From: a virus
Taxonomy: Duplodnaviria; Heunggongvirae; Uroviricota; Caudoviricetes
Virus record (IMG/VR): IMGVR_UViG_3300024272_001997
Strand: one strand, 5' to 3'
Length of the DNA: 64,000 bases
Under the pieces are notes generated by a model. The model was not told the origin of the DNA, searched no databases, and saw only the letters and a program-made list of their open reading frames with translations. Both the position numbers and the translations under genes were made by a program. Below are positions 1 through 16,965 of the stretch, piece after piece; within the stretch, counting starts at the first letter, position 1, and every line of letters starts with the position of its first letter.

Positions 1-143
1 CAAAGGATAATGCACAGGATCATAACATCCCAAGCACATTCCAACAGAGCAATGAAAATGCCTATGCCGCAAACGCAGGCTATTACAATGCTTAGAATGA
101 AGATGAAATTGAGAATCAGACGGGCAAAGAATTCTTTCATTAG
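1..143 (-). CDS. membrane protein, partial (start at 143, runs off window edge)
   Basis: ATG at 141-143 on minus strand; translation MKEFFARLILNFIFILSIVIACVCGIGIFIALLE... is hydrophobic; no stop before position 1. Confidence 0.4.
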
Positions 144-188
144 TTGATTTTCCTTTCTTATTTTTGTATAATTTATTTAGAAAAGAAA

Positions 189-560
189 TCAATCGCAGAA
201 GCAATCTGCGTCGTCATCATCATATATGCCATCTTCATCTTCTTCATCAAGGAGGACACCATCATGAACGGGAATTACCTTATAAGTAATCCAACCTTCG
301 ACTTCTTCAGTCATGCGATCATCAACATCCTCGGGATCAACCTGTTCGATGTCGCCATCATACAGTTCATCAGCAATTTCCTGGCGCATGGAATCCCAGG
401 TATAAAGGCCATGATAGCCGCCATAGGATTCATACTCTTCCATTGCCAGTTCACGAGCATACTGCTCAGCGTCAGCATGATCAATGAACTCATCGGTGCA
501 ATGATAGTGAGCACCGCCAAAACCACCGGACAAACCGGCATAAATCTTAAACTTGGGCAT
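189..560 (-). CDS. acidic hypothetical protein (123 aa)
   Basis: Track ORF; GGAGAGG RBS upstream of ATG; Asp/Glu-rich C-terminus; tightly packed with neighbours. Confidence 0.6.
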   Translation of the reverse strand: MPKFKIYAGLSGGFGGAHYHCTDEFIDHADAEQYARELAMEEYESYGGYHGLYTWDSMRQEIADELYDGDIEQVDPEDVDDRMTEEVEGWITYKVIPVHDGVLLDEEDEDGIYDDDDADCFCD

Positions 561-921
561 ATCTTACATCCTCTCCGACTACAGGGCAGTCACGCCGCAC
601 ACATTCCACGACTACCTTAGGCCATGTGTCTAATTCAGAACCGTCTTCAAATGCGATGGTCCAAACGGGACATTCACCGCACCACTGGCAAGGGCGCACA
701 GTGCGGGCGGCAATGCGCTCGATAGTATGGACCGCCGCATAATTACCAGCAAAACCAATGCCAGCCATCGCCGCAGTTAGTTCGCTCTTGGGCTTATCGT
801 TGAACGCTTTTTTCCATTCTTCAGAGCCGATGCATTTGATCATCTGCTCCATGAACTCATCTCGATAAACGAGAACCTTATCCTTCTCCATAGAAGTTAT
901 CTCCATGCAGAGTGAAGTCAA
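547..921 (-). CDS. hypothetical protein (start uncertain, alternative Met at 906 or 891)
   Basis: Track ORF overlapping both neighbours; CxxC pair near C-terminus. Confidence 0.5.
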   Translation of the reverse strand: MTSLCMEITSMEKDKVLVYRDEFMEQMIKCIGSEEWKKAFNDKPKSELTAAMAGIGFAGNYAAVHTIERIAARTVRPCQWCGECPVWTIAFEDGSELDTWPKVVVECVRRDCPVVGEDVRYAQV

Positions 922-1309
922 TGGTATTCAGCTTGGCAATATCCTCCGCAGGATAGAACCAACCATTCCACTTGCTTTCGGAGGCCGCAATCACTTTTTC
1001 GTAGGCTTCGTTATAAGTATTGACCTTGTCGTAATAGTCGTATCGCACATATTCATTATCAGAATATACAACGGTATTGTAATACAGCATCAGGTCGTCA
1101 TAACGAACAGTCAGATAATTCAGGTCGCTCTTGGCCGCGGCGTTCAGGGCGATGCAGAAGATAGCAAAGATGATTGCGACAACCAATGCACCACTGACGA
1201 TACCCTTAGCGAGCTTAGTGGGATGAAGCCAAATAGAGATGGCTGCGACAGTCATTACTACGATTGCGCCCAGTAGAATAAAAAAAGGAATCATATTCAA
1301 TCTCTCCAA
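878..1309 (-). CDS. membrane protein (143 aa, 2-3 TM helices)
   Basis: Track ORF; hydrophobic stretches IPFFILLGAIVVMTVAAISIWL and GALVVAIIFAIFCIALNAA. Confidence 0.6.
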   Translation of the reverse strand: MERLNMIPFFILLGAIVVMTVAAISIWLHPTKLAKGIVSGALVVAIIFAIFCIALNAAAKSDLNYLTVRYDDLMLYYNTVVYSDNEYVRYDYYDKVNTYNEAYEKVIAASESKWNGWFYPAEDIAKLNTIDFTLHGDNFYGEG

Positions 1310-1770
1310 TTCGTTTTTTGATTTTTACAACCGCAACCTTCTTGTTTGCGGCAGAATGTATTTGTATCCAGACCATCTTCATTGAAGCACTCGCACTTGG
1401 CGCAGGTTGCCATGACTCGCTTCGGATTCATGATCTGTGTCTGCATAATCATATTGCCTTGTCGCACTTCATGCATGATGAATGGTGGCTCTTGGCAGGT
1501 ATGATCGGTCTGGAAGTAGCAAACATTTGCGCGGGTGCAGGTTTCGCATGGGGTTGCGCTGAGACAGTTGCGGCAAATGATATGAGTATTGCCATCTTGA
1601 TCGTAATCAATGATTGGCTGGCTCATGATGATGTTGCCGCAAAGAGCGCATTTAGTTATCGTGGTTGAGAAGATGGGGCATCCCGGTGTTTCGACCGGCA
1701 TTTCTCGTCCAAAGACAGGACACTTCCCGTCTTGAAGCGCCTTATAGGCGCACTCGCCGCAAATTTTCAT
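1297..1770 (-). CDS. cysteine-rich (about 24 Cys) putative zinc-binding protein
   Basis: Track ORF 157 aa with many CxxC pairs (CGEC, CALCGN, CRNC, CETC, CAKCEC, CGCK). Confidence 0.65.
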   Translation of the reverse strand: MKICGECAYKALQDGKCPVFGREMPVETPGCPIFSTTITKCALCGNIIMSQPIIDYDQDGNTHIICRNCLSATPCETCTRANVCYFQTDHTCQEPPFIMHEVRQGNMIMQTQIMNPKRVMATCAKCECFNEDGLDTNTFCRKQEGCGCKNQKTNWRD

Positions 1771-1988
1771 GCTGTCAACATCTCCTTGAAAAATTCCATC
1801 TTATCATCGGGGATCTCAAAGTAGGAATCGAATGCTTGAATATCAATGCGCACTGACCCGGGAAATTCATCTTCAATTTCATGGCAGGCTTCAGCAATAG
1901 AATTTGCAAAAGTGAAGCCATTATAGTGTTTTATAACATCTGTCTCGTAGAAATATACTGTATAGAGAATCGCGTATGCCTTGCCCAT
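1767..1988 (-). CDS. hypothetical protein (73 aa)
   Basis: Track ORF, 4-nt overlap with downstream gene (coupled). Confidence 0.5.
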   Translation of the reverse strand: MGKAYAILYTVYFYETDVIKHYNGFTFANSIAEACHEIEDEFPGSVRIDIQAFDSYFEIPDDKMEFFKEMLTA

Positions 1989-2191
1989 TACTTTACACCA
2001 TTCTTTCTGATAGACTCTTCCATCAAATCCATCAAGCGATTGAAATAAATGGAAGCCATAGTTTCATCGTCAGCCTGATACTTGTTGGTGCTGTCGTCCA
2101 GCCAGGTGATAACGATCTTGTCGCCATCAAGACCAATGTCTTTGATGTTTTTGACATTGATACCCCAGTTCTTATTTACTCTTGCAATCAT
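1988..2191 (-). CDS. hypothetical protein (67 aa)
   Basis: Track ORF; GGAGG RBS (plus-strand 2197-2203 CCTCC). Confidence 0.5.
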   Translation of the reverse strand: MIARVNKNWGINVKNIKDIGLDGDKIVITWLDDSTNKYQADDETMASIYFNRLMDLMEESIRKNGVK

Positions 2192-2194
2192 TGG

Positions 2195-2629
2195 TTATAC
2201 CTCCTTCCGGCATACTCCGTAGATGTCTACGGGTTCGTTGTCATAGTCGCAGAGGAAACAATTCAGAATCTCATCGTAGAAACAATGAGCACAGAGTTCA
2301 CAACTGCGCTGGTCGTCGGGGATTTTGAGGATACAATCCCGACGAATAATCTTGGCGAGAGCAGGATCTTGCTTCTTTACATCACTCCAACGCTCCCAGT
2401 GATACTCGGGGTTGTCGGTGATGTCGCCGGTAATATCGTAAATGCGGCCTTCGATTTCAGTTGCGAAGTGATTGGCCACCTGGTCATACATGATGGGGCA
2501 GTGGAGCGATCCGAAGCGATGCCGCAGAATAACTGTGAAGTGAAAGCACATTCCATTGGAAAATGCATTTTCTGCGCCCAAGTCTCGGAACTGCTTGATG
2601 AAATCGAGGATCAGTTCTTGTTTAGTCAT
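2195..2629 (-). CDS. hypothetical protein (144 aa, Cys/His-rich)
   Basis: Track ORF; GGAGGTAATCGTT-ATG RBS. Confidence 0.6.
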   Translation of the reverse strand: MTKQELILDFIKQFRDLGAENAFSNGMCFHFTVILRHRFGSLHCPIMYDQVANHFATEIEGRIYDITGDITDNPEYHWERWSDVKKQDPALAKIIRRDCILKIPDDQRSCELCAHCFYDEILNCFLCDYDNEPVDIYGVCRKEV

Positions 2630-2634
2630 AACGA

Positions 2635-2886
2635 TTACCTCCGCTGAATACCGGTTTTGAGGATGGGTAAAGAAGGAGAACGATGGAGAACCCAGTATGC
2701 TTCATCCAGTTTCCCTTGGTTTTCCTTAGCAGTGCCGGTGATAGGATAAGTAATGCTCTGGCCTTTGTATTCGATACTGACGACGGCATACTCGGGATTG
2801 ATAGCTTCACAGATTTCAATGGATTCAATGAAGTCCATGTTGAAATCCCGTCCCGCAATACGAATGAAATTACGATAACGATTCAT
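2635..2886 (-). CDS. hypothetical protein (83 aa)
   Basis: Track ORF; C-terminus overlaps RBS of the next gene. Confidence 0.45.
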   Translation of the reverse strand: MNRYRNFIRIAGRDFNMDFIESIEICEAINPEYAVVSIEYKGQSITYPITGTAKENQGKLDEAYWVLHRSPSLPILKTGIQRR

Positions 2887-2887
2887 A

Positions 2888-3157
2888 TTAGAAACCTCCT
2901 GCGAAATTCAAACAGATGTGATGAAGGTGACGATTTTCGATCCAAGCGAAAGATACGGATGCGCCGGAATTATCGGGGTAGGGATCAACGATCTCATTCC
3001 ACTGGAAGAGAGGATCTTCATATTCCAAATTTTCAAAGTATTCTTCAACGACATGAAGGGCGTCTTTGGTATATTCTTTGGAAGACACAAGATGGTCTAC
3101 CTGCTCGCAGATGTTATATACTTCATCTTCAATAACAGACGGGGTGAAGCCTACCAT
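2888..3157 (-). CDS. hypothetical protein (89 aa), first gene of leftward operon
   Basis: Track ORF; GGAGGTAAAAGAATT-ATG RBS at 3166-3176. Confidence 0.6.
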   Translation of the reverse strand: MVGFTPSVIEDEVYNICEQVDHLVSSKEYTKDALHVVEEYFENLEYEDPLFQWNEIVDPYPDNSGASVSFAWIENRHLHHICLNFAGGF

Positions 3158-3188
3158 AATTCTTTTACCTCCTGGCGTATTATTCAGT

Positions 3189-3201
3189 CTTACTCAGTAA
3201 G
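3189..3201. promoter_or_regulatory. perfect 13-bp palindrome CTTACTCAGTAAG in 5' UTR of leftward operon (operator candidate)
   Basis: Self-complementary sequence read directly; loop too small for an RNA hairpin, so protein-binding site is more likely. Confidence 0.4.
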
Positions 3202-3293
3202 ATTTTGTATTACGCTCGGTACACGGAATTTTACTTTTCTGACGGAGCGCATTACCTTTTCTTTTACTATCTTTTCCTTTACTTTACATATAT

Positions 3294-3322
3294 ATTATAT
3301 CATAAAATTTTTACAAAATCAA
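3294..3322 (-). promoter_or_regulatory. sigma70-type promoter (class 2: TTGATT-17-TATAAT with T-rich spacer) for leftward operon
   Basis: Reverse complement reads TTGATTttgtaaaaattttatgaTATAAT. Confidence 0.5.
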
Positions 3323-3350
3323 TTAAGATACAATTAATTAGAATATAAAT

Positions 3351-3390
3351 GTAATACGTTGTAATACAGTGTAGGACAACGTAATACAAT
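3351..3390 (+). promoter_or_regulatory. three direct GTAATAC repeats (plus inverted copy at 3207-3213) overlapping putative rightward promoter TTGTAA-17-TAATAC; operator candidate
   Basis: TGTAATACGtTGTAATACAgtgtaggacaACGTAATACA; outer copies form an imperfect inverted repeat. Confidence 0.45.
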
Positions 3391-3431
3391 TTTTCTTTCC
3401 TAATTTTCAATAATCATACGGAGGTGATTAT

Positions 3432-3569
3432 ATGACCGTTATTACTGTAAGACTTGATGATATTGAAAAGCAATTATTACAGCAATATGCAGAAGATGAA
3501 GATCTATCTGTGTCATAGATTATAAGACGTCTAATAAAAGAATTTTTAGACGAGAAAGTTAGAAACTAA
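3432..3569 (+). CDS. ribbon-helix-helix (CopG/Arc/MetJ-like) DNA-binding protein, 45 aa, with in-frame TAG at 3516-3518
   Basis: GGAGGTG RBS 7 nt upstream; MTVITVRLDDIEKQLLQQYAEDEDLSVS[TAG]IIRRLIKEFLDEKVRN matches beta-strand/helix1/helix2 of the RHH fold; TAG falls where RHH proteins have E/Q (xSxS-E/Q-xIRxxI). Confidence 0.6.
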
Positions 3570-3584
3570 AAAGGAGCTTGTGAA

Positions 3585-3764
3585 ATGCCAAATTCAAAAG
3601 TAAAAATTGTATACTCTTTAAGAATCCATATTGGTTTACAACAATTAGGATTTTCTTATATAACAGAAATGAAGAATCCCAAGAATCCGCATCTGAATTG
3701 TTGGGTGTATCAAGAGACTCCCGCACTTCTGAAAGCGTTTGACTCCTTGGTAAAGGAGGGGTAA
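3585..3764 (+). CDS. hypothetical protein (59 aa)
   Basis: AAGGAG RBS 8 nt upstream of ATG; codon walk gives 60 codons ending TAA at 3762-3764; below the ORF-track length cut-off. Confidence 0.5.
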   Translation: MPNSKVKIVYSLRIHIGLQQLGFSYITEMKNPKNPHLNCWVYQETPALLKAFDSLVKEG

Positions 3765-4153
3765 TGATGAGCGCTATTGAAACATTTGTGGTTCACAAAG
3801 AATGGTTAGATAGTATTGCTGGATTACCCTGTGAGACTCAGGATAGAATCATTGCGGAGTTCGTTCGATATGGCTGTGGACTGGACCCTGCGCACCCTGA
3901 GGACGCAATCGCGCAGTCTTTTGTGAATATTTTGAAAAATAGAATTGATTATAGTAAGGATCAATATGCAAAGAAAGTTGCAATGGGAAAAACTGCTGGG
4001 GCTAAGAAGAAAATTGATGACAGACAAATTTATGAGTTGGCGCAAGAAGGAAAAACTGCAACTGAAATTGCAACAATTTTGAATATATCTAAATCTTCTG
4101 TTGACCACAGTGATGGTTGGAGAAAGAGAAGAGAAAACGAATTTGTATTTTGA
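3764..4153 (+). CDS. helix-turn-helix DNA-binding protein (129 aa)
   Basis: Track ORF; AAAGGAGGGG RBS; C-terminal segment IYELAQEGKTATEIATILNISKSSV resembles sigma region 4 / LuxR-type HTH. Confidence 0.65.
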   Translation: MMSAIETFVVHKEWLDSIAGLPCETQDRIIAEFVRYGCGLDPAHPEDAIAQSFVNILKNRIDYSKDQYAKKVAMGKTAGAKKKIDDRQIYELAQEGKTATEIATILNISKSSVDHSDGWRKRRENEFVF

Positions 4154-4154
4154 T

Positions 4155-4313
4155 TTGCAAAATTTGTTGCAAAGTTGCAAAAATTGTAACAATATATTCG
4201 TGCAAAGTTTGCATTTTGCATTGCATTGTACAAATCTAACTTATAACTTACAAATGCAACAATTTTGCAAATTGAATTGCAATTTTGCAACTTAATTTTT
4301 GCAATAAATTGCA
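4155..4313. repeat. array of at least 9 perfect and about 6 variant TTGCAA palindromic hexamers at roughly 9-12 bp spacing (iteron array)
   Basis: Perfect copies start near 4155, 4167, 4175, 4265, 4276, 4285, 4297, 4308; variants TTGTAA, TTGCAT, ATGCAA between; lies immediately after the HTH gene stop. Confidence 0.8.
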
Positions 4314-4322
4314 AAAATTTTA

Positions 4323-4344
4323 GGGGACCCCTCCGGGGATCCCC
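4323..4344. other. GC-rich hairpin GGGGACCCCtccGGGGATCCCC (9-bp GC stem, one bulge)
   Basis: Read from sequence; not followed by a U-tract on either strand. Confidence 0.4.
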
Positions 4345-4366
4345 ATCATAAAGGAGATAATGGAGA

Positions 4367-4594
4367 ATGATATATCAAAGACCGAAAGGTAATGTAAGAT
4401 TTGCTTATGGTAGATTTGATGATTTACCATATGGAGCCGAAGAAGTAAAGATATTTATGGTACCTGGGGATCCAGTATTATATGTAGTACCAATTGGAGA
4501 TATTCCATATGCGTATGAGAAAAATGAACCAGAAATTCCAATGTCAGATAGGCAGTGTGAGGAGTTATTGGATTATTTTAGAGAGTACGTATAA
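4367..4594 (+). CDS. hypothetical protein (75 aa)
   Basis: Track ORF; AAGGAG at 4351-4356. Confidence 0.55.
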   Translation: MIYQRPKGNVRFAYGRFDDLPYGAEEVKIFMVPGDPVLYVVPIGDIPYAYEKNEPEIPMSDRQCEELLDYFREYV

Positions 4595-4601
4595 TCTTTA
4601 T

Positions 4602-4630
4602 TTGATTTTATAAAAAAATATTGTTATAAT
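4602..4630 (+). promoter_or_regulatory. sigma70-type promoter TTGATT-17-TATAAT
   Basis: TTGATTttataaaaaaatattgtTATAAT; a second candidate (TTGGAT-16-TATAAT) lies at 4568-4595. Confidence 0.45.
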
Positions 4631-4665
4631 TATTATAGTATAAAAGAAAAGGTGGAAAAGGTTAT

Positions 4666-4830
4666 ATGATGCTTGTAGATGAAGGTTATCTTCATGACAA
4701 TACTATCGTGCGCATCGGGGAAGAGATGGGAATCTTTAGAAAACCCGATGAAAGCAAAGTAGAATATGTCATGAGGGTCATTCAAGAACTTCAATTCAAA
4801 AAGCCCTATGTAGGGGTATTCAAAAAATGA
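4666..4830 (+). CDS. hypothetical protein (54 aa)
   Basis: AAAAGGTGGAAAAGG RBS; 55 codons to TGA at 4828-4830; below ORF-track cut-off. Confidence 0.4.
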   Translation: MMLVDEGYLHDNTIVRIGEEMGIFRKPDESKVEYVMRVIQELQFKKPYVGVFKK

Positions 4831-4887
4831 ATTGAAAAAATGAAATGAAAACCGAGGAACAAAATAAAAAATGAAATGAAAATCCGA
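4822..4887 (+). repeat. three tandem copies of AAAAAATGAA(A/T)TGAAAA (start-stop mini-ORFs) in leader of 4905 gene
   Basis: Copies at about 4822, 4835, 4866; last two extend to ...AAAA(C/T)CCGA. Confidence 0.5.
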
Positions 4888-4904
4888 TTGAAAGGAAAAG
4901 TAAA

Positions 4905-5360
4905 ATGGTTTTTAGCTATAATAATTTAATGTCTGCCGCAAAGTCTGGTCAGAGACTTGGTAAGTGGAAGGATTTGCCGGTCTTTTCTTGTGATAGAATG
5001 GGACTGGCGCAAAAAGGCAATGGTGCTTATTATGTCGTCTATGATGATGACAATGCTTTCGTGAAGAAGAGCGGTTCTATGTGGTTCAGATTTGGTTATC
5101 TGGATAAGGAAGGCTCTGTTCATGAGGACACTAAGCGAGAATATTTCCCCATCCGCACAGAGAAGGACAAGGAAGTCTTCTATTATAATGAGAAGAAAGC
5201 TACAGTGGAGTTTGCGCCTGTACCGACCGTACATACTACTGCTTCTTCTGGAACTACGACTGCGGATGTGAAACTGGAGATTGACGTTGAGGGAACCTTG
5301 AAGAAGGCGAGGGAAATGACTATTGAAGATTTGCTCGCAGGATTCAACTACGGACTCTAA
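4905..5360 (+). CDS. hypothetical protein (151 aa)
   Basis: Track ORF, GAAAGGAAAAG RBS. Confidence 0.6.
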   Translation: MVFSYNNLMSAAKSGQRLGKWKDLPVFSCDRMGLAQKGNGAYYVVYDDDNAFVKKSGSMWFRFGYLDKEGSVHEDTKREYFPIRTEKDKEVFYYNEKKATVEFAPVPTVHTTASSGTTTADVKLEIDVEGTLKKAREMTIEDLLAGFNYGL

Positions 5361-5453
5361 GTGGACTCGCTTCTGGAATAAAGTATTTCCGATCGTTGAG
5401 TGGTTAGAAGATTTGGGGGAGCTTATTGTGCTCTTGGATGATATATTTGATTA

Positions 5454-5479
5454 AGGAGGACTTCGGTCCTCCTTTTTTT
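5454..5479 (+). terminator. rho-independent terminator
   Basis: AGGAGGActtcgGTCCTCCT followed by TTTTTTT. Confidence 0.7.
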
Positions 5480-5571
5480 GTTGCTTTTGGAAGAGAATTG
5501 TGAGATTGTTCTGGCCGATCGGCCCCTGGACTATCCGATCGCTTTTCCTCGTCACCGTTACCGTTGGGGCA

Positions 5572-5606
5572 TAAAAAAATCCACCCTCATTTTCAGAGGG
5601 TGGGTT
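5572..5606 (-). terminator. rho-independent terminator for gene 5693..6160
   Basis: Minus strand reads CCCACCCTctgaaaatGAGGGTGG followed by ATTTTTTT. Confidence 0.65.
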
Positions 5607-5692
5607 CTAAAATTATCTTAGCGTAGCTCTTCTCTTGGTAGTTGTAGCTTAGTCAGAAATCATCTTATGAGAATTTCTTCACAACGAGAATC

Positions 5693-6160
5693 TTACTTCA
5701 TAATTTGAGCCAAAAATTCCTTTAGAGCTTCATCATCGCTCTTGGCGTGAATGGTGGCGGAACGCTTCTTAGGATTTAGACCAACCAGCTTATCCTCGGG
5801 GATAGCATCGATTGCGGTCTTCAGTTCCTTCATTGCGCCCATCAGGGCGAAAGTCTGATCCAGGGCCTCAACCAGAGTGTCCAGGTCATCGTCAGTGATT
5901 TCCATCTCATCCATGGCGGTGTTGCCAGTCAGATCAGCGTAATCACGGAACAGGTCGACCATCTTCAGACCCAGATCCTTTTTCTTTGCGGCCAGCTCCA
6001 CCTTGGCGACACGCTCTGCCTCGGCCTTACGGGCGGCCTCCTGCTCAGCACAGAAGTCAGACATTGCGGCGTTCATGGCATCTGCCATGGCCTGACCAAT
6101 TGCATTGATATCCTGACCATTGCGCAACTGGTCCAGGAAATAGTTCTTATCATAAACCAT
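5693..6160 (-). CDS. hypothetical coiled-coil protein (155 aa)
   Basis: Track ORF trimmed to Met with GAGGT RBS (MVYDKNYF...); the upstream Met lies inside the promoter. Confidence 0.6.
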   Translation of the reverse strand: MVYDKNYFLDQLRNGQDINAIGQAMADAMNAAMSDFCAEQEAARKAEAERVAKVELAAKKKDLGLKMVDLFRDYADLTGNTAMDEMEITDDDLDTLVEALDQTFALMGAMKELKTAIDAIPEDKLVGLNPKKRSATIHAKSDDEALKEFLAQIMK

Positions 6161-6197
6161 TGGTATATACCTCACATTTCTTATTTATTGTACTTAT

Positions 6198-6226
6198 ATT
6201 ATATCAAAAAATTTTATAAAAATCAA
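6198..6226 (-). promoter_or_regulatory. sigma70-type promoter class 2 (TTGATT-17-TATAAT, spacer tttataaaattttttga)
   Basis: Read on reverse complement. Confidence 0.5.
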
Positions 6227-6242
6227 ATCCGATCGGCGCTTT

Positions 6243-6273
6243 CTGCGTTCTCCGAACGCAGATTGGATTTTTT
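6243..6273 (+). terminator. hairpin CTGCGTTCtccGAACGCAG followed by attggaTTTTTT; overlaps candidate plus promoter TTGGAT-18-TATAAT (6264-6293)
   Basis: Read from sequence. Confidence 0.35.
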
Positions 6274-6299
6274 ATAAAAAAAATGTTATAATAAAAAAA

Positions 6300-6500
6300 A
6301 AGAACATTTTTACCGATCGGGACTTTCAATTCAATGTTTCGCCATATGAGAATTCCCGATCGGCCCTCCGGGGTGGGGTGCTAGATTTCGGGAGAACGGG
6401 GCATATGCGGAAGTCGCTAGAAGTAGCAGAAAAATTCCATATGGGGTATACCGATCGGAAAATCGGGCCCTGACCTCCGTTCAGGGCCCGTTGAACCACA
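6300..6500. ncRNA. ORF-less GC-rich segment apparently transcribed from both strands (minus class-1 promoter at 6506-6534, plus promoter at 6264-6293); contains CCGATCGG motifs and a 9-bp GC hairpin at 6467-6490
   Basis: No plausible ORF (6326..6517 begins inside the -10 element); hairpin GGGCCCTGAcctccgTTCAGGGCCC; CATATGG repeated. Confidence 0.3.
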
Positions 6501-6505
6501 CCCTT

Positions 6506-6534
6506 ATTATACCACAAGTCGAGGTATTTGTCAA
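6506..6534 (-). promoter_or_regulatory. class-1 consensus promoter TTGACA-17-TATAAT with no ORF downstream
   Basis: Reverse complement GGGGTTGACAaatacctcgacttgtggTATAATAAGGG. Confidence 0.6.
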
Positions 6535-6551
6535 CCCCTAAATCAAAAAAA

Positions 6552-6573
6552 AATCGACTGATTTCTCAGTCGA
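6552..6573 (-). terminator. terminator hairpin overlapping stop of gene 6566..6736
   Basis: ATCGACTGAgaaaTCAGTCGAT followed by TTTTTTTTT on minus strand. Confidence 0.55.
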
Positions 6574-6736
6574 TTTCTAAACAGCCATCCCAATGGAAGT
6601 GCGCCGTCACATGGAGGCTTGCACCGCACTCGGGGCAGATTGTGTAGGAAGTGCCGGTGACAAAATCGCCGTTGTCTTCCAGATCGTCGAACTCGTCCAC
6701 ATCAAAGGACGCACCGCAGTAAGGACATTCACCCAT
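6566..6736 (-). CDS. zinc-ribbon protein (56 aa, CxxC...CxxC)
   Basis: GGAGGTATGAAAA RBS; MGECPYCGASFDVDEFDDLEDNGDFVTGTSYTICPECGASLHVTAHFHWDGCLEID; below track cut-off. Confidence 0.5.
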   Translation of the reverse strand: MGECPYCGASFDVDEFDDLEDNGDFVTGTSYTICPECGASLHVTAHFHWDGCLEID

Positions 6737-6749
6737 TTTTCATACCTCC

Positions 6750-6938
6750 TTAGCAATCATAGGTGTAGCAACCTTCGTAGGGGTCGAAGCCGAAGTCATC
6801 GTCAATGTCTTCGGGTTCGTAGTCATCGTCGTACTCACAGGGGGCGGGAGTGCCATCATCGGGATAGTGGCAACGGGGGTATTCTTCGTCCTCGTCCTTC
6901 CAGTAGTAACCGCAATTAGAATCAGCACAGGTAGCCAT
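6750..6938 (-). CDS. acidic Cys-containing protein (62 aa)
   Basis: Track ORF; GGAGGAAAAC RBS. Confidence 0.5.
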   Translation of the reverse strand: MATCADSNCGYYWKDEDEEYPRCHYPDDGTPAPCEYDDDYEPEDIDDDFGFDPYEGCYTYDC

Positions 6939-7015
6939 TTTGTTTTCCTCCTTGTTTGATTTTCTTTATTATACCATGTCGGGGGGCATTTGTCAAGCCC
7001 CCCGACAACTTTTTT

Positions 7016-7609
7016 TTAGAAAGGCAGTTCGTCTGCCAGTCCGGCAACCTCATTCCATTCCTCGACAATCGCAGGAATATCGATGAAAGGACGGCTTGCC
7101 ATGTAGTCCGCCATGTGGACACATCTGTCCACATTGGTAAAGGGTCTGTCCTCTTTCTCGGTAGACCACTGACCCATGTGAGCGCAGACAGCGTTCAGAA
7201 GCAGAAAATGGGGTTCGCCGTAACCAGTGACCAGACAGTAATCACGGAAAGCAGTCGCCGCATTTCTGGCGTGATTCTTGTACTCGGCCTTGTCGAAACC
7301 ATCCAGACCATACTTGACAGTATCGTGAATGATACAGGCGACAATGACGAAATCCTTGTATTCTTCCTTCATGTATGCGTAAGAACTCATGCGGAGCAGT
7401 TCTTCGGCGAACATGACAACCGCCTTGGTGTGGCGAACCAGACCGCCAACGCCCTGGGACATCTTGGGGTGATACTTGCCAGAACTGGAAGCACCGTCTG
7501 TCCAGAAGTAGTCGGGAACTCGGTCGATCAGGTATCCCTTGACCGCCATGCGGAGATCCTCGTCCAGGATGAGGGACAGTTCCCTCTCAAAAAGCTTGAT
7601 GTTCTTCAT
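7016..7609 (-). CDS. HD-domain phosphohydrolase (197 aa)
   Basis: Track ORF trimmed to Met preceded by GAGGAATTGATACCC; contains H...HD motif (GKYHP, IIHDTVKYG) typical of the HD superfamily. Confidence 0.7.
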   Translation of the reverse strand: MKNIKLFERELSLILDEDLRMAVKGYLIDRVPDYFWTDGASSSGKYHPKMSQGVGGLVRHTKAVVMFAEELLRMSSYAYMKEEYKDFVIVACIIHDTVKYGLDGFDKAEYKNHARNAATAFRDYCLVTGYGEPHFLLLNAVCAHMGQWSTEKEDRPFTNVDRCVHMADYMASRPFIDIPAIVEEWNEVAGLADELPF

Positions 7610-7656
7610 GGGTATCAATTCCTCTCTCATTTGATGTACTCATTATAGCATAGGAT

Positions 7657-7833
7657 TTAGAGTTTGTCAAGTACTTTTTTAGAAAATTCTGTGTATTCAA
7701 TACACATTTTCAAAGTATCTTTTTCAACTGTCACACGCACAGAACTAACAAGGGGATTTTGTATCATCAGTTCGCCGGCCATTTTCTTGACCTCTGAATA
7801 GGGGATACCCTTACCAATTTCAATTCTAGCCAT
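7657..7833 (-). CDS. hypothetical protein (58 aa)
   Basis: Track ORF trimmed to Met with GGAGGG RBS. Confidence 0.45.
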   Translation of the reverse strand: MARIEIGKGIPYSEVKKMAGELMIQNPLVSSVRVTVEKDTLKMCIEYTEFSKKVLDKL

Positions 7834-7857
7834 TGTTTTTCCCTCCATGGTTCTGGG

Positions 7858-8028
7858 TTACCCCAGAACCACAAAATTTTTGCCGTAGTGGTCGTGAACG
7901 CCTTCTTCTACATTGTAGGTGATGGACAGTTCATCCATGTAAATGACCTTGGAATCACCAAAACCGAGTTCTTCCATGGTCTGAAGCTGGCGGAGCAGTT
8001 CACTAACAGTAATGCACTTTTTATTCAT
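7858..8028 (-). CDS. hypothetical protein (56 aa)
   Basis: GAGGAGGTAACC RBS; MNKKCITVSELLRQLQTMEELGFGDSKVIYMDELSITYNVEEGVHDHYGKNFVVLG; below track cut-off. Confidence 0.45.
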   Translation of the reverse strand: MNKKCITVSELLRQLQTMEELGFGDSKVIYMDELSITYNVEEGVHDHYGKNFVVLG

Positions 8029-8149
8029 GGGGGTTACCTCCTCTTGATTTATAATACAATTATACCACCGATTCCGGGAAAATCAAGTTGGAGTATTGCA
8101 CAAAAAATGCGCCCCAAAAATTGTTGGAGTTGGTTATTTTGCCGAAAAA

Positions 8150-8236
8150 CCGGCCCGCGCGCACGTAAAGGGCCGGCCGAAATTTGTGCAAATTGCACAA
8201 AAACGAAGAAAAACCGGGATTTTTCCCGGTTTTTCT
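8150..8236 (+). ncRNA. degenerate copy of GC-hairpin/terminator cassette
   Basis: Hairpin CCGGCCC-13nt-GGGCCGG then GCCGAAATTTGTGCAAATTGCACAAAAA then bidirectional terminator AAACCGGGAtttttCCCGGTTT; upstream promoter degenerate. Confidence 0.25.
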
Positions 8237-8603
8237 AACTTTTTGCCTTTCTTTTTGCGATTAAAGTCAATTCGTAGGCATTTTCACCAATTTTGAAGCT
8301 AATTTGACGAGTTTTGTTGGTGATTTCCACTGAAACGTAGCCTTTTTCCGCTAAAAAGTGGGCGATTTCCGCAATTACAGCCTCTTTTTCCGGATTTTCG
8401 GTGGGTTTTCGTGCGGATTTGGTGGTTTTTGGCGATTTTGTGTCCGCATTAGCGTTTTTCATAGCCAGTTTGTGTGCTTCTGGACTCAAATCAAAGTCCA
8501 TTTGCTCTCCCCTGTCGATGCATTTATCATCGGCAAGAATGGCTTCGGCTTCGCTTCTGGAACACTTGAGAGAACGCATGATGCGTTCGATTTGGCTATC
8601 CAT
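8235..8603 (-). CDS. hypothetical protein (122 aa), paralog of 11293..11649; TAG is its stop codon
   Basis: Track ORF; shares N-terminal SR(S/E)EAIxLxD(D/E)DKxIDRGE motif with its paralog; stop codon TAG at 8235-8237 followed by the terminator. Confidence 0.6.
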   Translation of the reverse strand: MDSQIERIMRSLKCSRSEAEAILADDKCIDRGEQMDFDLSPEAHKLAMKNANADTKSPKTTKSARKPTENPEKEAVIAEIAHFLAEKGYVSVEITNKTRQISFKIGENAYELTLIAKRKAKS

Positions 8604-8702
8604 GGTGGTTGCCCCCTTTCCTTACTTAGTATAGCACATTTGGGGGGATTTGTCAAGAGGAAAGTTTGGGGGAGAATTTCTCCCCCTCTCCCCTCTCTCT
8701 GG

Positions 8703-9095
8703 TTAGACCAGAGAGAAGAAAGCCTTTCTCTTGTCCTCGGTTCTCTTGACCTGGCCTGCATCAACCATCTGGCGAACCAGAGCGGACATTCTCTGGTTGG
8801 TCATGGTGTCAGGCAGGTTGGGAACCTTTTTCAGCAGTTCGGACACGGTGAACAGCTGATTGGGATTGGCTTCCATCACAGCCAGAACACCGGCCTTGAT
8901 GGTTGCGTTGGCTTCCTGCTGAGCGGTGGGCTTCTTCTCAGCGGAGTTCTTCTTGGCCAGCAGTTCCTGCTCGTGGGCGATGAACTCAGCCAGCATGGGG
9001 TTGTTGGCGACTTCGGGGATGTTCGCAATCATAGCGAACTTCTGAGCCTTGGTCAGCTTGGTGGATGCGGAAGCGGAAGAAGTAGTGTTAGCCAT
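8703..9095 (-). CDS. putative winged-helix protein (130 aa), paralog of 11729..12106
   Basis: Track ORF; about 70 percent identity to paralog over whole length; GAAAGGAATTGATACT-ATG leader. Confidence 0.65.
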   Translation of the reverse strand: MANTTSSASASTKLTKAQKFAMIANIPEVANNPMLAEFIAHEQELLAKKNSAEKKPTAQQEANATIKAGVLAVMEANPNQLFTVSELLKKVPNLPDTMTNQRMSALVRQMVDAGQVKRTEDKRKAFFSLV

Positions 9096-9366
9096 AGTAT
9101 CAATTCCTTTCGGTTTTAGCGACTTGAACCTGTCGATGATTTATTCTGTAAGAGGTGTTCCTCTTTACATTCTTATTATAGCACATTCGGCTCGGTTTGT
9201 CAAGAACTTTTTTTCTTTTTTTTTCTTGACCTTGGAGGGTTGCCCCTCTCTTTTTGTACCCTCATTGTATCACATCTTGGGCGGTTTGTCAAGAGGTTTT
9301 TTCAACTTTTTTTTTCGCTCGGCTCGCTCTGTCCTGCGTTGTTGCCTGTCCCTCACTGACAAGGGT

Positions 9367-9395
9367 ATTATACCATAGCCAGAAGCGGATTGCAA
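9367..9395 (-). promoter_or_regulatory. orphan promoter TTGCAA-17-TATAAT, back-to-back with plus promoter at 9454
   Basis: Reverse complement TTGCAAtccgcttctggctatggTATAAT; no ORF downstream before next promoter. Confidence 0.45.
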
Positions 9396-9453
9396 TAGGC
9401 AAAGTATACAAAATCGGGAGAAATAATTTGTGCATTTTTTTCGCATTTTCCTC

Positions 9454-9482
9454 TTGACAAATTGCTGGGGGTATGGTATAAT
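9454..9482 (+). promoter_or_regulatory. orphan consensus promoter CCTCTTGACAAA-17-TATAAT on plus strand
   Basis: TTGACAaattgctgggggtatggTATAAT; fires toward 3' end of the convergent gene 9569..10006. Confidence 0.65.
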
Positions 9483-9488
9483 GGAAAT

Positions 9489-9576
9489 TCTGCCCGGGCA
9501 CACTCGCGCCCGGGCCGCCGAAATGTCAATTGGTAATTTTGCACAAAAAAGTGAGGGTTGCCCCTCACTCATTTTT
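9489..9576 (+). ncRNA. candidate small RNA: 5' GC hairpin GCCCGGGC-acactcgc-GCCCGGGC plus terminator hairpin GTGAGGGttgcCCCTCAC-tcaTTTTT
   Basis: Starts about 7 nt after -10, ends at intrinsic terminator that also terminates the minus gene; no ORF. Confidence 0.35.
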
Positions 9577-10006
9577 GAATGACCGTTTCCAGATTGATTC
9601 CGGCGCTGACTTCTTCCCAGTTCTCCACATTGTCAACATGGACAACCTTGTGACAGCCATTGACCATCATCAGAGAATAGGTTGCGTTCTCATAACCGCA
9701 CAGAACCTGGACAACCTCTTTGCCGATTGCCATGCCGAAGCCGGCTTCCCATGCCGTACCAGAGTCGGAATACATACCGAAGTTGAGAACCATGACCACA
9801 TCACAGTCATGGATGGCTTCAATGTCCATTTCAAAGACACGCTTTGCCCAGTCAGAGTTCGGCAAGTCCCATGCGTTGGGAACTTCATGCTCCTGGGGTA
9901 CATGAACCGGATAACCTGCGGAGCGCAGACGAGAGATGGTTTCCTTGTAGACTACCAATTCAGTAGCATTGAAGAACGGCGAAGCCAGATAGATTTTCTT
10001 TTTCAT
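9569..10006 (-). CDS. nucleoside 2-deoxyribosyltransferase-like protein (145 aa)
   Basis: Track ORF trimmed to Met after GGAAAGGAACTGAACACT; KIYLASPFF...MVLNFGMYSDSGTAWEAGFGMAIGKEVV matches the NDT/Rcl family signature. Confidence 0.65.
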   Translation of the reverse strand: MKKKIYLASPFFNATELVVYKETISRLRSAGYPVHVPQEHEVPNAWDLPNSDWAKRVFEMDIEAIHDCDVVMVLNFGMYSDSGTAWEAGFGMAIGKEVVQVLCGYENATYSLMMVNGCHKVVHVDNVENWEEVSAGINLETVIQK

Positions 10007-10062
10007 AGTGTTCAGTTCCTTTCCTTTTTGTATTCTCATTATACCATGAGAAAAGGCTTTTG

Positions 10063-10398
10063 TCAAGCCTTTTCTACTCGGTAGAAGAAAAATTTATTGA
10101 CAATTCTTTTTGCCTTTTTGTCGTGGCAAAAATAAATACTTCCGAACAGATGTGTGGAATCGTCCATCAATTTGAGATTTTGAATTGCTTCCAATTTCAC
10201 AGGCTTGCTTACATTGCGGAAGAGTTTCCAGAAGAAAACGAATGGGAAAAGCAGGATTTCCAGAATAATTTCCAGAATACCAGTGATGAGCAGATAGGGA
10301 AGCTGGATGAAGTTCATCCATCTCTGGCCCCACAGTTCTTCGTGAATGAAAGACAGGATAATGTATCCGGCAAGAATACCTAATAAGAAATTCAACAT
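10063..10398 (-). CDS. membrane protein (111 aa)
   Basis: Track ORF trimmed to Met with GAGGTG RBS; two TM helices. Confidence 0.5.
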   Translation of the reverse strand: MLNFLLGILAGYIILSFIHEELWGQRWMNFIQLPYLLITGILEIILEILLFPFVFFWKLFRNVSKPVKLEAIQNLKLMDDSTHLFGSIYFCHDKKAKRIVNKFFFYRVEKA

Positions 10399-10462
10399 TT
10401 TACACACCTCATTTGTTTTTCTTTATTATAGCATGAATTGGGGGTTTTGTCAACCCCCAATT

Positions 10463-10771
10463 TTACGGAAGTTCATCGGGATAGCAGAAGCATTCCCATG
10501 CGATACTCTCCCAAGTTTCCATACACTTGGAAGTGTTGCACAGCCAGATCGTGACAAAGAAAGTATTGACAACAGGCAGACCAATCATCAAAGCGCACTG
10601 GATGAGACTGATGAAAGTCTTTGCCCAGTTCGTAGGCTGTTTGACCCTGACCATGCCCTTGGCCTTGCACTCCTTAAAAGTGGGAATCATAGCCAGACTG
10701 GCGAACACGAACAGATACAGGAAAGCCAGAATTGCGCTTGCGACATAGACCCAGAAGAAAATTTCTAACAT
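10463..10771 (-). CDS. membrane protein (102 aa)
   Basis: Track ORF trimmed to Met with GAGGT RBS; 3 hydrophobic helices. Confidence 0.5.
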   Translation of the reverse strand: MLEIFFWVYVASAILAFLYLFVFASLAMIPTFKECKAKGMVRVKQPTNWAKTFISLIQCALMIGLPVVNTFFVTIWLCNTSKCMETWESIAWECFCYPDELP

Positions 10772-10843
10772 AACATTTACCTCACTCATTTAATTTTCTT
10801 TATTATAACATAGGTTTGCGAATTTGTCAAGAGTTATTTTGTA

Positions 10844-11056
10844 TCAAAGGGACATTTTCTGTCCCCAGATACAACGCTCAAAGGCAGGCTTGTAGACATT
10901 GTTCCAAATGAACTCCATCTCGTTGTAAGCTTCTCTGTCCTCCACAATCATTGCGTAGAACTGAACTGCTCCGAACGCCTGATGAATCCACAGTTCTTTG
11001 CCGTCCTTCTGGCACTGAGCCAAAAGCCAATCGATGTGCTGTTTCAGTTTATCCAT
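10844..11056 (-). CDS. hypothetical protein (70 aa)
   Basis: Track ORF trimmed to Met after AGGAGGTAATCACC; upstream Mets lie in promoter. Confidence 0.5.
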   Translation of the reverse strand: MDKLKQHIDWLLAQCQKDGKELWIHQAFGAVQFYAMIVEDREAYNEMEFIWNNVYKPAFERCIWGQKMSL

Positions 11057-11175
11057 GGTGATTACCTCCTTGATTTGTACCCTAATTATAGCATAGGTTT
11101 CGGGATTTGTCAAGGGGTTTTGCAAAAATAATTTTTGCAAGAAAAATTGCTGAAATAGGGGGTTAGTAGCGAAAT

Positions 11176-11234
11176 GCCGGGCGCCACACTCGTCAGCGCC
11201 CGGCCATTATACCACATTCTTTTGAAAATGTCAA
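11176..11234 (-). promoter_or_regulatory. class-1 promoter immediately abutting GC hairpin GCCGGGCGC-cacactcgtca-GCGCCCGGC (inverted-orientation copy of the cassette)
   Basis: TTGACAttttcaaaagaatgtggTATAAT then hairpin 1 nt later; no terminator follows. Confidence 0.4.
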
Positions 11235-11263
11235 GCATTATTTTTTCGTCAAAATGCACAAAA

Positions 11264-11294
11264 AATCTGTCCGCGCTGGGCGGACAGATTTCTC
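11264..11294 (-). terminator. terminator for gene 11293..11649
   Basis: TCTGTCCGCccagcGCGGACAGA followed by TTTTTTGTGC on minus strand. Confidence 0.55.
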
Positions 11295-11649
11295 AGGAGC
11301 GGGGACACGCAAGGGTGACTTTGTACTTCGTGCCGTTGTGGGTGAACAGGAACTCACGCTCGGCATTGGTGACATTGAACTCGGTGATTCCCAGTCCATT
11401 CAGACCTTCCATCATTGCGGAACACAGCTCTGCCTTTTCCGGCTTGGCTTTCTTCTCTCTTTTGGTGGTGGTCTGCTTGCGGTCTGCCTGTCGTGCTTTC
11501 TTTGCGCCCGCTTCCAGTTCGGGGTCAAGCTCAAACAACTTTTCGCCCCTGTCGATTCGCTTGTCTTCGTCCATCAGTTCGATGGCTTCCTCACGGCTGA
11601 TGTTCAGCGACTTCATCAGCTTCTGGATTTTCTCTTCCATCGGGGTCAT
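11293..11649 (-). CDS. hypothetical protein (118 aa), paralog of 8235..8603
   Basis: Track ORF. Confidence 0.6.
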   Translation of the reverse strand: MTPMEEKIQKLMKSLNISREEAIELMDEDKRIDRGEKLFELDPELEAGAKKARQADRKQTTTKREKKAKPEKAELCSAMMEGLNGLGITEFNVTNAEREFLFTHNGTKYKVTLACPRS

Positions 11650-11728
11650 CTCCTTTCTGTACTAAGTATAGCACAGATTGCTGGATTTGTCAAGGGGAAA
11701 TTTTGGGGGAGTTTCCTCCCCCATCGGG

Positions 11729-12106
11729 TTACGCAATGGCGAAGAACGCCTTGCGCTTGTCCTCGGAGCGGACAACCTGACCCGCATCGACCATCTGACG
11801 GACGAGTGCGCTCATGCGCTGATTGGTCATGGTGTCGGGCAGACCGGGCACTTCCTTGAGCAGTTCGGACACGGTGCGCTTCTTGCCGTCAGCCAGAACC
11901 TCCAGAACGGCGGTCTTGATTACGGCATTTGCCTCCTGCTGGGCAGTGGGCTTCTTGTCGGCGGAGTTCTTCTTTGCCAGAAGCTCAACTTCGTGGGCGA
12001 TGAACTCGGACAGCATGGGGTCAGCCTTGACGGCGGGCAGTTCAGCCAGAATGGCGAACTTCTGAGCCTTGGTCAGACGAGCGGAAGAAGAAGTAGTGTT
12101 AGCCAT
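11729..12106 (-). CDS. putative winged-helix protein (125 aa), paralog of 8703..9095
   Basis: Track ORF trimmed to MANTTSS... matching its paralog's start. Confidence 0.65.
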   Translation of the reverse strand: MANTTSSSARLTKAQKFAILAELPAVKADPMLSEFIAHEVELLAKKNSADKKPTAQQEANAVIKTAVLEVLADGKKRTVSELLKEVPGLPDTMTNQRMSALVRQMVDAGQVVRSEDKRKAFFAIA

Positions 12107-12284
12107 AGTATCGATCTCCAATCTTGCGGTAGGTCGCAACCCAAATTTGATTTATCTGTAAGAGGTGTTCCTCTTTACATTCTTATTGTATCACATCTTG
12201 AGCCAGTTGTCAAGAGGTTTTTTGAATTTTTTTTTGGCTTTCACTCCACCTAGTCCCTAATACAGCCTCGGGATTGGTTCACAT

Positions 12285-12380
12285 TTATATTCCGCACAAC
12301 GGAGCGACCGTGCGGTCGAGGACTTTGTCGTCATGGTCTGACACGACTCTCGTGGGTCTTGTCTCAACGACTTCTGCCAT
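12285..12380 (-). CDS. possible micro-protein (31 aa)
   Basis: Sits 17 nt downstream of a class-1 promoter with the conserved leader GGGTACAAAAGAGGGAAGC-ATG; MAEVVETRPTRVVSDHDDKVLDRTVAPLCGI. Confidence 0.25.
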   Translation of the reverse strand: MAEVVETRPTRVVSDHDDKVLDRTVAPLCGI

Positions 12381-12689
12381 GCTTCCCTCTTTTGTACCCT
12401 TATTATAACACATCTTGGGGAGTTTGTCAAGAGGTTTTTTTTCAGATTTCCTTCTGTTCGGTCATCTTGTGGTCACTTGCTCCGCAAGCCCTACCGCCTC
12501 CGACCACGGCTAACCTCTTGACTTCTCTTACATTGTATCACAACTTGGGGGATTTGTCAAGGGGTTTCTTGAAGTTTCTTCAAGAAAGTTGCGTGCCGGA
12601 AGGTTGGGTCGTACACAGCCTCTGCCAACAGTTCGACGCCTAGCGTGGGTTTCCCAACTCCCGAGGCGTTCCCTCCCCTTGACACCAAT

Positions 12690-12718
12690 ACTATACCACA
12701 TCTGCCCCCAGATTGCAA
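12690..12718 (-). promoter_or_regulatory. orphan promoter TTGCAA-17-TATAGT back-to-back with plus promoter at 12776
   Basis: Same architecture and flanking sequence as 9367-9395. Confidence 0.4.
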
Positions 12719-12775
12719 TTGGCAAAATACACAAAATCGGGAAAAATAATTATTTATTATTTGTGCAATTTTCCT

Positions 12776-12805
12776 CTTGACAAATTGGCTGGCGGTGTGG
12801 TATAA
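12776..12805 (+). promoter_or_regulatory. orphan consensus promoter on plus strand (18-bp spacer)
   Basis: CCTCTTGACAaattggctggcggtgtggTATAAT. Confidence 0.6.
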
Positions 12806-12811
12806 TAAAAT

Positions 12812-12875
12812 TTCGGCGCCCATCAACCGTGGGCGCCGCGCCGAAAAAGCCACCCCAAAAATGGGGTGGCTTTCG
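12812..12875 (+). ncRNA. candidate small RNA: hairpin CGGCGCCCA-tcaaccg-TGGGCGCCG then GCGCCGAAAAA then terminator hairpin AGCCACCCCAaaaaTGGGGTGGCT
   Basis: Same architecture as 9489..9576 with compensatory stem changes. Confidence 0.35.
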
Positions 12876-12877
12876 TA

Positions 12878-16959: not shown

Positions 16960-16965
16960 GGAAAT

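Follow-up and report, generated by a model that had tools for sequence, protein, structure and literature searches.

Here, we describe a divergent control region in a Caudoviricetes virus (Duplodnaviria; Heunggongvirae; Uroviricota; IMG/VR record IMGVR_UViG_3300024272_001997), of which a stretch of 64,000 nucleotides, referred to as the window, was analyzed. The intergenic region at positions 3158–3431 separates a leftward operon from a rightward operon of three tightly packed genes, the first of which encodes a small ribbon–helix–helix (RHH) protein. This region contains two arrays of four 7-bp boxes, and in related loci the boxes change together with the β-strand of the RHH protein. In addition, the RHH gene carries an in-frame TAG (amber) codon. 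We consider it fairly probable, with moderate confidence, that the RHH protein autoregulates its own operon (RHH–gp2–gp3) and also targets the leftward (presumed early) operon, and that it would do so only once the TAG codon is decoded. An earlier note on this DNA had placed a divergent control region between the leftward operon and the RHH gene, which the analysis supports.

Two phased box arrays between divergent operons

The array closest to the RHH gene, which we call OR (3351–3387, listed without a strand), consists of three GTAATAC boxes starting at 3351, 3361 and 3381 and a GTAGGAC box starting at 3371, separated by the spacers gtt, agt and aac. It lies just upstream of the RHH gene, with its final box 45 nt before the start codon. 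The second array, OL (3177–3213, likewise without a strand), sits in the leftward operon's leader at a distance of 4 nt from the Shine–Dalgarno sequence, and comprises GTATTAT (3177), GTCTTAC (3187), GTAAGAT (3197) and GTATTAC (3207), with the spacers tca, tca and ttt. Both arrays follow the box consensus GTMNKAC with a period of exactly 10 bp (7 bp of box and 3 bp of spacer). They are 174 bp apart, with the leftward promoter P_L between them, and OL spans approximately +74 to +110 from P_L.

The earlier note had listed GTAATAC at 3351, 3361 and 3381 as direct repeats and GTATTAC at 3207–3213 as an inverted copy. All of these are present, while the distinction between direct and inverted is moot because GTAWTAC is itself a dyad (GTA-N-TAC). 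What had been missed is the in-phase GTAGGAC at 3371, which is the fourth unit of OR, and the three degenerate in-phase boxes (3177, 3187 and 3197) beside the inverted copy, which turns out to be the last box of OL. The perfect palindrome CTTACTCAGTAAG at 3189–3201 is likewise real (6+1+6), but it does not stand as a separate element: it is formed by OL boxes 2 and 3 in opposite orientation. Taken alone it carries no significance, as chance would give approximately 15 palindromes with 6-bp arms in 64 kb.

The phased arrays are far rarer. GTAWTAC occurs 13 times in the window, against 5.95 expected, and a phased search with this motif, made before any refinement of the consensus, gave 7 matches (0.64 expected), 5 of them in the intergenic region. 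The consensus GTMNKAC was refined after viewing the window and its relatives, which somewhat inflates the figures obtained with it: 6 phased pairs (GTMNKAC-N3-GTMNKAC, at most one mismatch) against 0.54 expected in 64 kb, three in OL and three in OR, and 4 phased triples against 0.16 expected. OL and OR are the only such arrays within the window. A box-like pair in 10-bp phase inside the RHH gene (GTCATAG att ATAAGAC, 3512–3528), whose first box contains the TAG codon, was rejected as a third operator; it has two mismatches, a class at chance level (12 other matches, approximately 9.7 expected).

Relatives of the module were gathered by exact-protein look-ups and by scans with an alignment of gene 2, the second rightward gene, yielding approximately 80 loci (given L numbers here). 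An OR array is found in every lineage, with one to four boxes; multiple boxes are 10 bp apart (multiples of approximately 10 bp in L026 and L028), and the distance from the last box to the RHH start is 45–55 nt across lineages. Among close relatives of the lineage with the V-T-R strand type (strand types are described below), 4 of 9 OR spacer sites are variable versus 0 of 28 box sites (p=0.0019). The S-T-K lineage gives a similar result, with 5 of 6 spacer sites variable versus 2 of 21 box sites (p=0.0014).

Phased arrays are also found at the place of OL, directly upstream of the leftward Shine–Dalgarno sequence, in many lineages. In L015–17, which belong to V-T-R lineages, the OL boxes are retained while the center of the palindrome changes from TCA to CGG. 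The half-sites of OL agree with OR of the same genome in V-T-R and S-T-K lineages, being of the TAC type in the window and of the GAC type in L006 and L023; in the S-T-K lineages OL reads GTCRGAC, having the GAC half-site in common with OR. A different box type occupies this leader elsewhere: TTGCAA-type boxes sit at the OL position in L004 (5430–5470, also with a 10-bp period), and where OL would be in L018 (~1110–1170) and in the leftward leader of L054. Another product of the rightward operon may target the same leader in these three loci. Upstream of OL in the transcript, the leftward leader also contains GACGG (3241–3245), which is conserved across lineages with differing flanks.

The leftward promoter P_L (3294..3322, minus strand; TTGATT-17-TGaTATAAT) has an upstream TG extension and matches 10 of 12 consensus positions in a promoter scan. 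Proposed in the earlier note at 3322..3294, it is kept in all relatives examined, and by its sequence it is a strong host-type promoter of the TAG-free leftward operon; other leftward operons are headed by similar TGnTATAAT sites. The first gene behind P_L (2888..3157, minus strand) has its Shine–Dalgarno sequence at 3168–3172 and is TAG-free. For the rightward operon, a candidate promoter P_R (3383..3414, plus strand) combines a −35-like AATACA (3383–3388) inside the last OR box with a −10-like CAATAAT (3408–3414) that ends 5 nt before the Shine–Dalgarno sequence (5–7 nt across the alignment). The −10-like element, (T/C)A(T/A)A(A/T)(T/A), is conserved across the aligned upstream regions, and an alignment of 52 of these on the Shine–Dalgarno sequence shows a conserved TTTT(C/T)A(T/A)A element, with the last box at a fixed distance. 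The L019 lineage, which has a canonical TGGACA-17-TGcTATAAT promoter with a single box over its −35, is the only one with a clear overlap of operator and −35; in L026 and L028 a canonical promoter lies just upstream of the boxes. A bound array would probably hinder RNA polymerase in every one of these arrangements.

The RHH protein and its boxes

The RHH gene (3432..3569, plus strand) has 45 codons, starting with ATG at 3432 behind the Shine–Dalgarno sequence GGAGGTG (3420–3426). Its TAG codon (3516–3518), missed in the earlier note, is codon 29, at the start of helix 2. When TAG is translated as Gln, the product matches the Pfam families DUF6290 (5.5e-10; 39.7 bits, cut-off 27) and RHH_1 (4e-7; 30.2 bits, cut-off 20.5), and both matches span the TAG. 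In PHROGs it falls in repressor and Arc-like families. A profile of the protein searched against solved structures came closest to ORF56 of pRN1 (2k9i, 6e-8), followed by AvtR, SvtR and CopG (0.2); the matched entries are 2k9i, 4hv0, 2kel and 2cpg. From these profile matches, the product belongs to the ribbon–helix–helix (CopG/Arc/MetJ) superfamily, with an N-terminal β-strand and two helices. It scores below the cut-offs of the NCBIfam ORF56 model (23, cut-off 50) and of the RelB model (32 bits, cut-off 50). A RelB/ParD-like antitoxin was considered and rejected: the 45-residue protein has no C-terminal extension, and gene 2 has no toxin match in Pfam, PHROGs or NCBIfam.

A predicted RNA hairpin at 3407–3435 (AAUAAUCAU / GUGAUUAU) places the RHH Shine–Dalgarno sequence in the loop, with the start codon base-paired; in L016 this pairing is kept by a G-U wobble.

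Across the related loci the RHH β-strand comes in approximately 15 types, and the boxes of OR change with it and not with the two downstream genes. The window, with the strand TVITVRL, has three GTAATAC boxes and one GTAGGAC. AILTLKI is accompanied by GTATTAC, GTAATAT and GTAATAC, and TSITIKI by GTAAGAC, GTAGGAC and RTAAGAC. ERITIRL occurs with GTCGGAC and GTCTGAC, EKISIRL with two GTCGGAC boxes and NKITIRI with two GTAGGAC boxes. Box positions 3 and 5 vary with one strand residue, which we take to be the counterpart of the residue at the first DNA-facing position in CopG: where it is Val or Ile the boxes have A/T, where it is Arg C/G, and where it is Ser a mixture, a correspondence that is chemically sensible. 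Read from these pairings, DNA specificity follows the RHH strand residues, as for β-ribbon recognition.

The identity of the ligand is best judged from pairs of loci in which the genes of the module have been exchanged. Pairs with different strands never have a common set of boxes (0 of 975), including nine pairs with the same gene 3, while pairs with the same strand and a different gene-3 family have identical boxes in 59 of 71 cases. Individual loci illustrate both situations. In L004, genes 2 and 3 are identical to those of the window, and both the RHH protein and the boxes differ. Conversely, L007, L009 and L011 have the RHH protein and boxes in common with L008, L010 and L012, with unrelated gene-3 families, and the same holds for L015 and L016 compared with L017, and for L006 compared with L023. 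In L014, the N-terminal half of the RHH protein is that of the window and the C-terminal half is different; here, the boxes of the window are kept.

Because natural shuffling separates the boxes from genes 2 and 3 and ties them to the RHH protein, it is the RHH protein that is indicated as the ligand, and we regard its pairing with OR as very likely on these comparative grounds. The earlier note had favored the adjacent RHH protein as the likely ligand of the repeats and had kept the helix–turn–helix (HTH) protein at 3764..4153 as an alternative. The covariation supports the former and excludes the latter, with L004 as the clearest case.

The amber codon and the two coding regimes

In the late genes of the window, TAG is by all appearances a sense codon. 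Allowing TAG read-through lengthens the longest open reading frame (ORF) from 921 to 3129 codons, and 88 in-frame TAGs are found across 22 late genes, making up 88 of 523 Gln-type codons (17%). The TAG-containing late genes are on the plus strand, from 22.5 kb rightwards. The phage reads TAG as Gln in its late genes (code 15). The longest ORF (39284–48673; 3129 codons) contains 36 in-frame TAGs and the ORF after it (48789–54374; 1861 codons) contains 6. The nearest deposited phage is phAss-1, with 37% identity to one late protein of the window; TAG has been reported as Gln in phAss-1, and its predicted hosts are Clostridia (PMC10607447).

The leftward operon (189–3157, minus strand) is different. 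Its nine genes contain no TAG in 1003 codons and use only TAA and TGA as stops. Another 24 leftward genes also have no TAG and stop at TAA or TGA, although these were picked as TAG-free ORFs. The bias was quantified over 55 distinct TAG-using loci. Here, 44 of 161 Gln-type codons in RHH genes are TAG (27%), as are 52 of 201 in gene 2 (26%) and 29 of 397 in gene 3, versus 3 of 591 in a chain of 211 genes of the leftward operon (Fisher p approximately 3e-40, a value to be read with the relatedness of the loci in mind). Given the TAG bias between RHH–gene 2 and the leftward operon, the intergenic region therefore divides, as far as codon usage tells, a standard-code unit from a recoded one. The rightward unit should not simply be labeled "early", the earlier note's word for this control region, because its first gene needs TAG read-through.

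The lineages TVITVRL (except L014), SVITVRL and AILTLKI have the TAG at RHH codon 29, as do several distant ones (L023–28). In these same genes, ordinary Gln codons switch between CAA and CAG while the TAG stays. The codons after the TAG change mostly synonymously, under purifying selection, which argues that the region past it is translated. At codon 29, many homologs have CAA or CAG, L013 and L014 among them; a Trp codon that differs from TAG by one transition, TGG, is found there in L006 (6085–6087), L056 and L057. The TAGs of gene 2 align with Gln at positions 19 and 20, while position 21 is Gln, Leu or Lys elsewhere (Leu in the window). From the reading frame, full-length RHH protein of this phage requires TAG decoding.

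The two coding regimes also differ in composition, with a GC content of 0.43–0.50 in the leftward TAG-free block (6000–20000) versus 0.31–0.38 in the recoded late block (32000–64000), the latter with a strongly positive GC skew. The late recoded operons are headed by near-perfect promoters (TTGACA/TTGACT-17-TGnTATAAT) at approximately 22520–22550, 38561–38590 and 48735–48765. For the timing of these operons, translation (recoding) may thus matter more than a phage RNA polymerase or sigma factor.

As for the lineage itself, a megablast of positions 1–8000 and a tblastn of gene 2 gave no match among deposited phages, no relatives of gene 3 were found in IMG/VR, and gene 2 has 0 relatives among 185,579 representative bacterial and archaeal genomes (GTDB). 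Contigs encoding proteins identical to those of the window reach 211 kb; the module-bearing contigs are 145–211 kb, with no sign of flanking host DNA.

Neighboring genes, proposed regulation and related systems

Gene 2 (3585..3764, plus strand), whose stop overlaps the start of gene 3, encodes 59 residues and is the most conserved gene of the module. It has no family match in Pfam, PHROGs or NCBIfam, and a single-sequence AlphaFold model (pLDDT 77) found no PDB fold match better than E=0.26. Gene 3 (3764..4153, plus strand) encodes a DUF6291 domain (1.1e-8) and a C-terminal HTH, and matches no known initiator family in the same three databases. Directly after gene 3 lies a TTGCAA-rich field (4155–4314) with 8 of the 30 TTGCAA copies of the window. 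The repeat motif at this place varies with the gene-3 family across relatives (L002–L107 regions): the DUF6291 type (125–134 residues) mostly has TTGCAA (4–11 copies; absent from most of the L019 lineage), the "MIEMFKDNE" type (184–235 residues) mostly has TACAAA (7–14 copies), and the type in L026 and L028 has GGAACAA/TTGTTC (6–7 copies). Gene 3 is thus the likely ligand of the downstream TTGCAA field, and the two look like an initiator–iteron or regulator–site pair. Further downstream, a GC-rich hairpin GGGGACCCCTCCGGGGATCCCC (4323–4344), with a terminator score on the minus strand only, separates the TTGCAA field from the next plus-strand gene, and two copies of the direct repeat AAAAAATGAAATGAAAA(C/T)C (4826–4908) lie upstream of the gene starting at 4905.

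We propose that each 7-bp box (GTM-N-KAC) would be bound by one RHH dimer through its β-ribbon. With four boxes at 10-bp spacing, four dimers would sit on the same side of the helix, where they could bind cooperatively. OR ends where the −35 of the RHH operon should lie, and its occupancy would autorepress RHH–gp2–gp3. Occupancy of OL, within the transcribed leader, would block transcription of the leftward operon or loop it out. Under the standard code, translation would halt after codon 28, resulting in a peptide without helix 2. Once TAG-to-Gln decoding is active, full-length repressor would be made, and neither effect would set in before the code switch. The RHH protein would thereby act as a delayed, code-switch-dependent negative regulator.

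Several observations weigh against this mechanism. A consensus promoter scan found no sigma-70 promoter for the RHH operon, the 52 aligned upstream regions gave no convincing −35/−10 pair in this lineage, and the candidate P_R has a poor −35 and a long spacer (19–20 bp). OL is absent from L007–L012, although OR is the same there; it is replaced by TTGCAA boxes in L004, L018 and L054; and in the ERITIRL and EKISIRL lineages it consists of GTCTTAC/GTAAGAC hybrids, unlike the GTCGGAC type of their OR. Because it is not universal and is mismatched with OR in these two lineages, we treat OL as accessory and hold it with lower confidence than OR: comparison across relatives puts the odds of its being a functional operator only slightly in its favor. 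Scans of the window, of a further 10 kb past its left end and of related loci turned up no suppressor tRNA(CUA); they covered the smaller part of a genome whose relatives' contigs reach 211 kb.

The role of the TAG codon faces objections of its own. The RHH gene has no TAG in 20 of the 55 distinct loci, and in 8 of the 55 neither the RHH gene nor gene 2 has one. The first 17 loci had suggested that at least one TAG is always found in RHH or gene 2, an idea that was dropped: the counts over the 55 loci (16, 12, 19 and 8) fit independence, with 8.7 double-negatives expected (Fisher p=0.78). Late expression may simply make the TAG tolerable, in which case it would not serve as a timer. That the amber codon is a selected, built-in timer, with the code change triggering an early-to-later transcriptional transition, is accordingly put forward here as a tentative idea that we would not expect to hold.

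The most serious alternative is autoregulation of the cop–rep type, in which the RHH protein would repress its own operon only, via OR, and thereby set the dose of gp2 and gp3. Here, gp3 would act on the TTGCAA field, OL would be weak or fortuitous, and the TAG would reflect neutral drift in a gene expressed after the switch. Such an arrangement fits the universal presence of OR and the patchy one of OL, the match of the RHH protein to the plasmid copy-control proteins ORF56 and CopG, the covariation of the gene-3 family with the downstream repeats, and the independence of the TAGs in RHH and gene 2, including the loci that have none in either. It fits poorly with OL itself, which has four in-phase boxes of a kind found nowhere else in the 64 kb besides OR, recurs in many lineages, and has half-sites that match its own OR where the strand is of the V-T-R or S-T-K type. 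The TTGCAA boxes that fill the leader of L004, L018 and L054 further suggest that products of the rightward operon regularly act on this leader. We consider this alternative possible, though unlikely.

Far less probable is a role of the repeats and palindromes as secondary structure in RNA or DNA (an attenuator, a terminator or an RNase site) instead of as operators. The dyads are real, as 3175–3194 pairs with 3196–3215 at 75% and 3347–3368 with 3370–3391 at 82% in a repeat search, and the segment 3340–3440 folds better than shuffled sequence (z=−2.76). However, large dyads arise automatically from boxes that are dyads themselves (GTM-N-KAC). Against shuffled sequence, the leftward leader shows no gain in folding (z=−1.37), and its minimum-energy fold does not contain the OL dyad as a simple hairpin. 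Relatives keep the boxes and the 10-bp phase while losing complementarity (the dyad drops from 15/20 to 12/19 in L015–17 by hand count) and show no compensatory change, and the arrays of two or three direct boxes in other lineages are not hairpins. Least probable of all is that the boxes are bound by the HTH protein (3764–4153) or by the 59-residue gene-2 protein, with the RHH protein being antitoxin-like or unrelated: the weak RelB-likeness and the clear HTH of gene 3 speak for it, but the nine pairs with the same gene 3 and L004 contradict it, gene 3 has its own covarying repeat in TTGCAA, and the RHH protein lacks a toxin-binding tail, next to a gene 2 that matches no toxin family.

Returning to the RHH protein as a repressor of both operons, the closest known counterparts are CopG (pMV158) and ORF56 (pRN1), minimal RHH proteins of approximately 45–56 residues, CopG also having 45. 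As proposed here, the RHH gene is the first of the operon that its product would repress. Several CopG dimers bind one face of the DNA, with a spacing of roughly one turn. In contrast to these plasmid systems, the present one is phage-borne and has an amber codon in the repressor gene; a single 13-bp pseudo-symmetric element is replaced by four 7-bp boxes with a period of exactly 10 bp, and the leader of a divergent operon contains another array. In comparison with the CopG–RepB and ORF56–ORF904 pairs, an initiator role of gene 3 is suggested here by the repeat field alone. The earlier note had seen in this region the layout of a classic phage genetic switch. In the sense of lysis versus lysogeny, this does not describe it well. 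The module resembles an operon led by a repressor of the CopG/ORF56 type, with an iteron-like repeat field behind it, and the analysis gave no hint of a lysogeny context, although integrases were not searched for systematically.

Arc and Mnt (P22 immI) are likewise small RHH repressors of a phage, and PHROGs families of Arc-like repressors match here. Both act at divergent promoters, with adjacent dimers approximately one helical turn apart. Their operators are single, with two subsites, within overlapping promoters, whereas here two four-box arrays are 174 bp apart; furthermore, no antirepressor gene was recognized here. Omega (pSM19035, inc18) and MetJ bind operators made of short repeats, direct or inverted, cooperatively and with one RHH dimer each. 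These repeats follow each other without spacers at a period of 7 bp (omega) or 8 bp (MetJ), such that the dimers wind around the helix, in contrast to the 10-bp period and single face here.

The window resembles recoded phages in having structural genes with TAG as a Gln codon alongside genes that use the standard code. For such phages, a published idea holds that in-frame stops postpone the making of proteins until the code has switched. The genes in the published examples encode lysis proteins, structural proteins, homing endonucleases and integrases, and the word "repressor" is absent from two phage-recoding papers. Here, in contrast, the recoded gene is a putative transcriptional repressor located between TAG-free operons. 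This putative amber-gated repressor, absent from the earlier note, is to us the most interesting feature of the region.

What this means for the biology of these phages depends in part on the TAG. If it is neutral, an ordinary but well-defined autoregulated operon of the CopG/Arc type would remain. The approximately 15 natural pairs of β-strand and box offer a ready specificity table for ribbon–helix–helix recognition, such as V-T-R with GTA-N-TAC, R-T-R with GTC-N-GAC and S-T-K with GTA-N-GAC. A single intergenic region divides a TAG-free operon from a TAG-using one, although the leftward and the late operons both have host-type promoters, which suggests that timing in these large gut phages leans heavily on translation and small repressors. 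If the proposed mechanism is true, stop-codon recoding would control a transcription factor, beyond late structural and lysis proteins, and the code switch would be tied to the transcription program.

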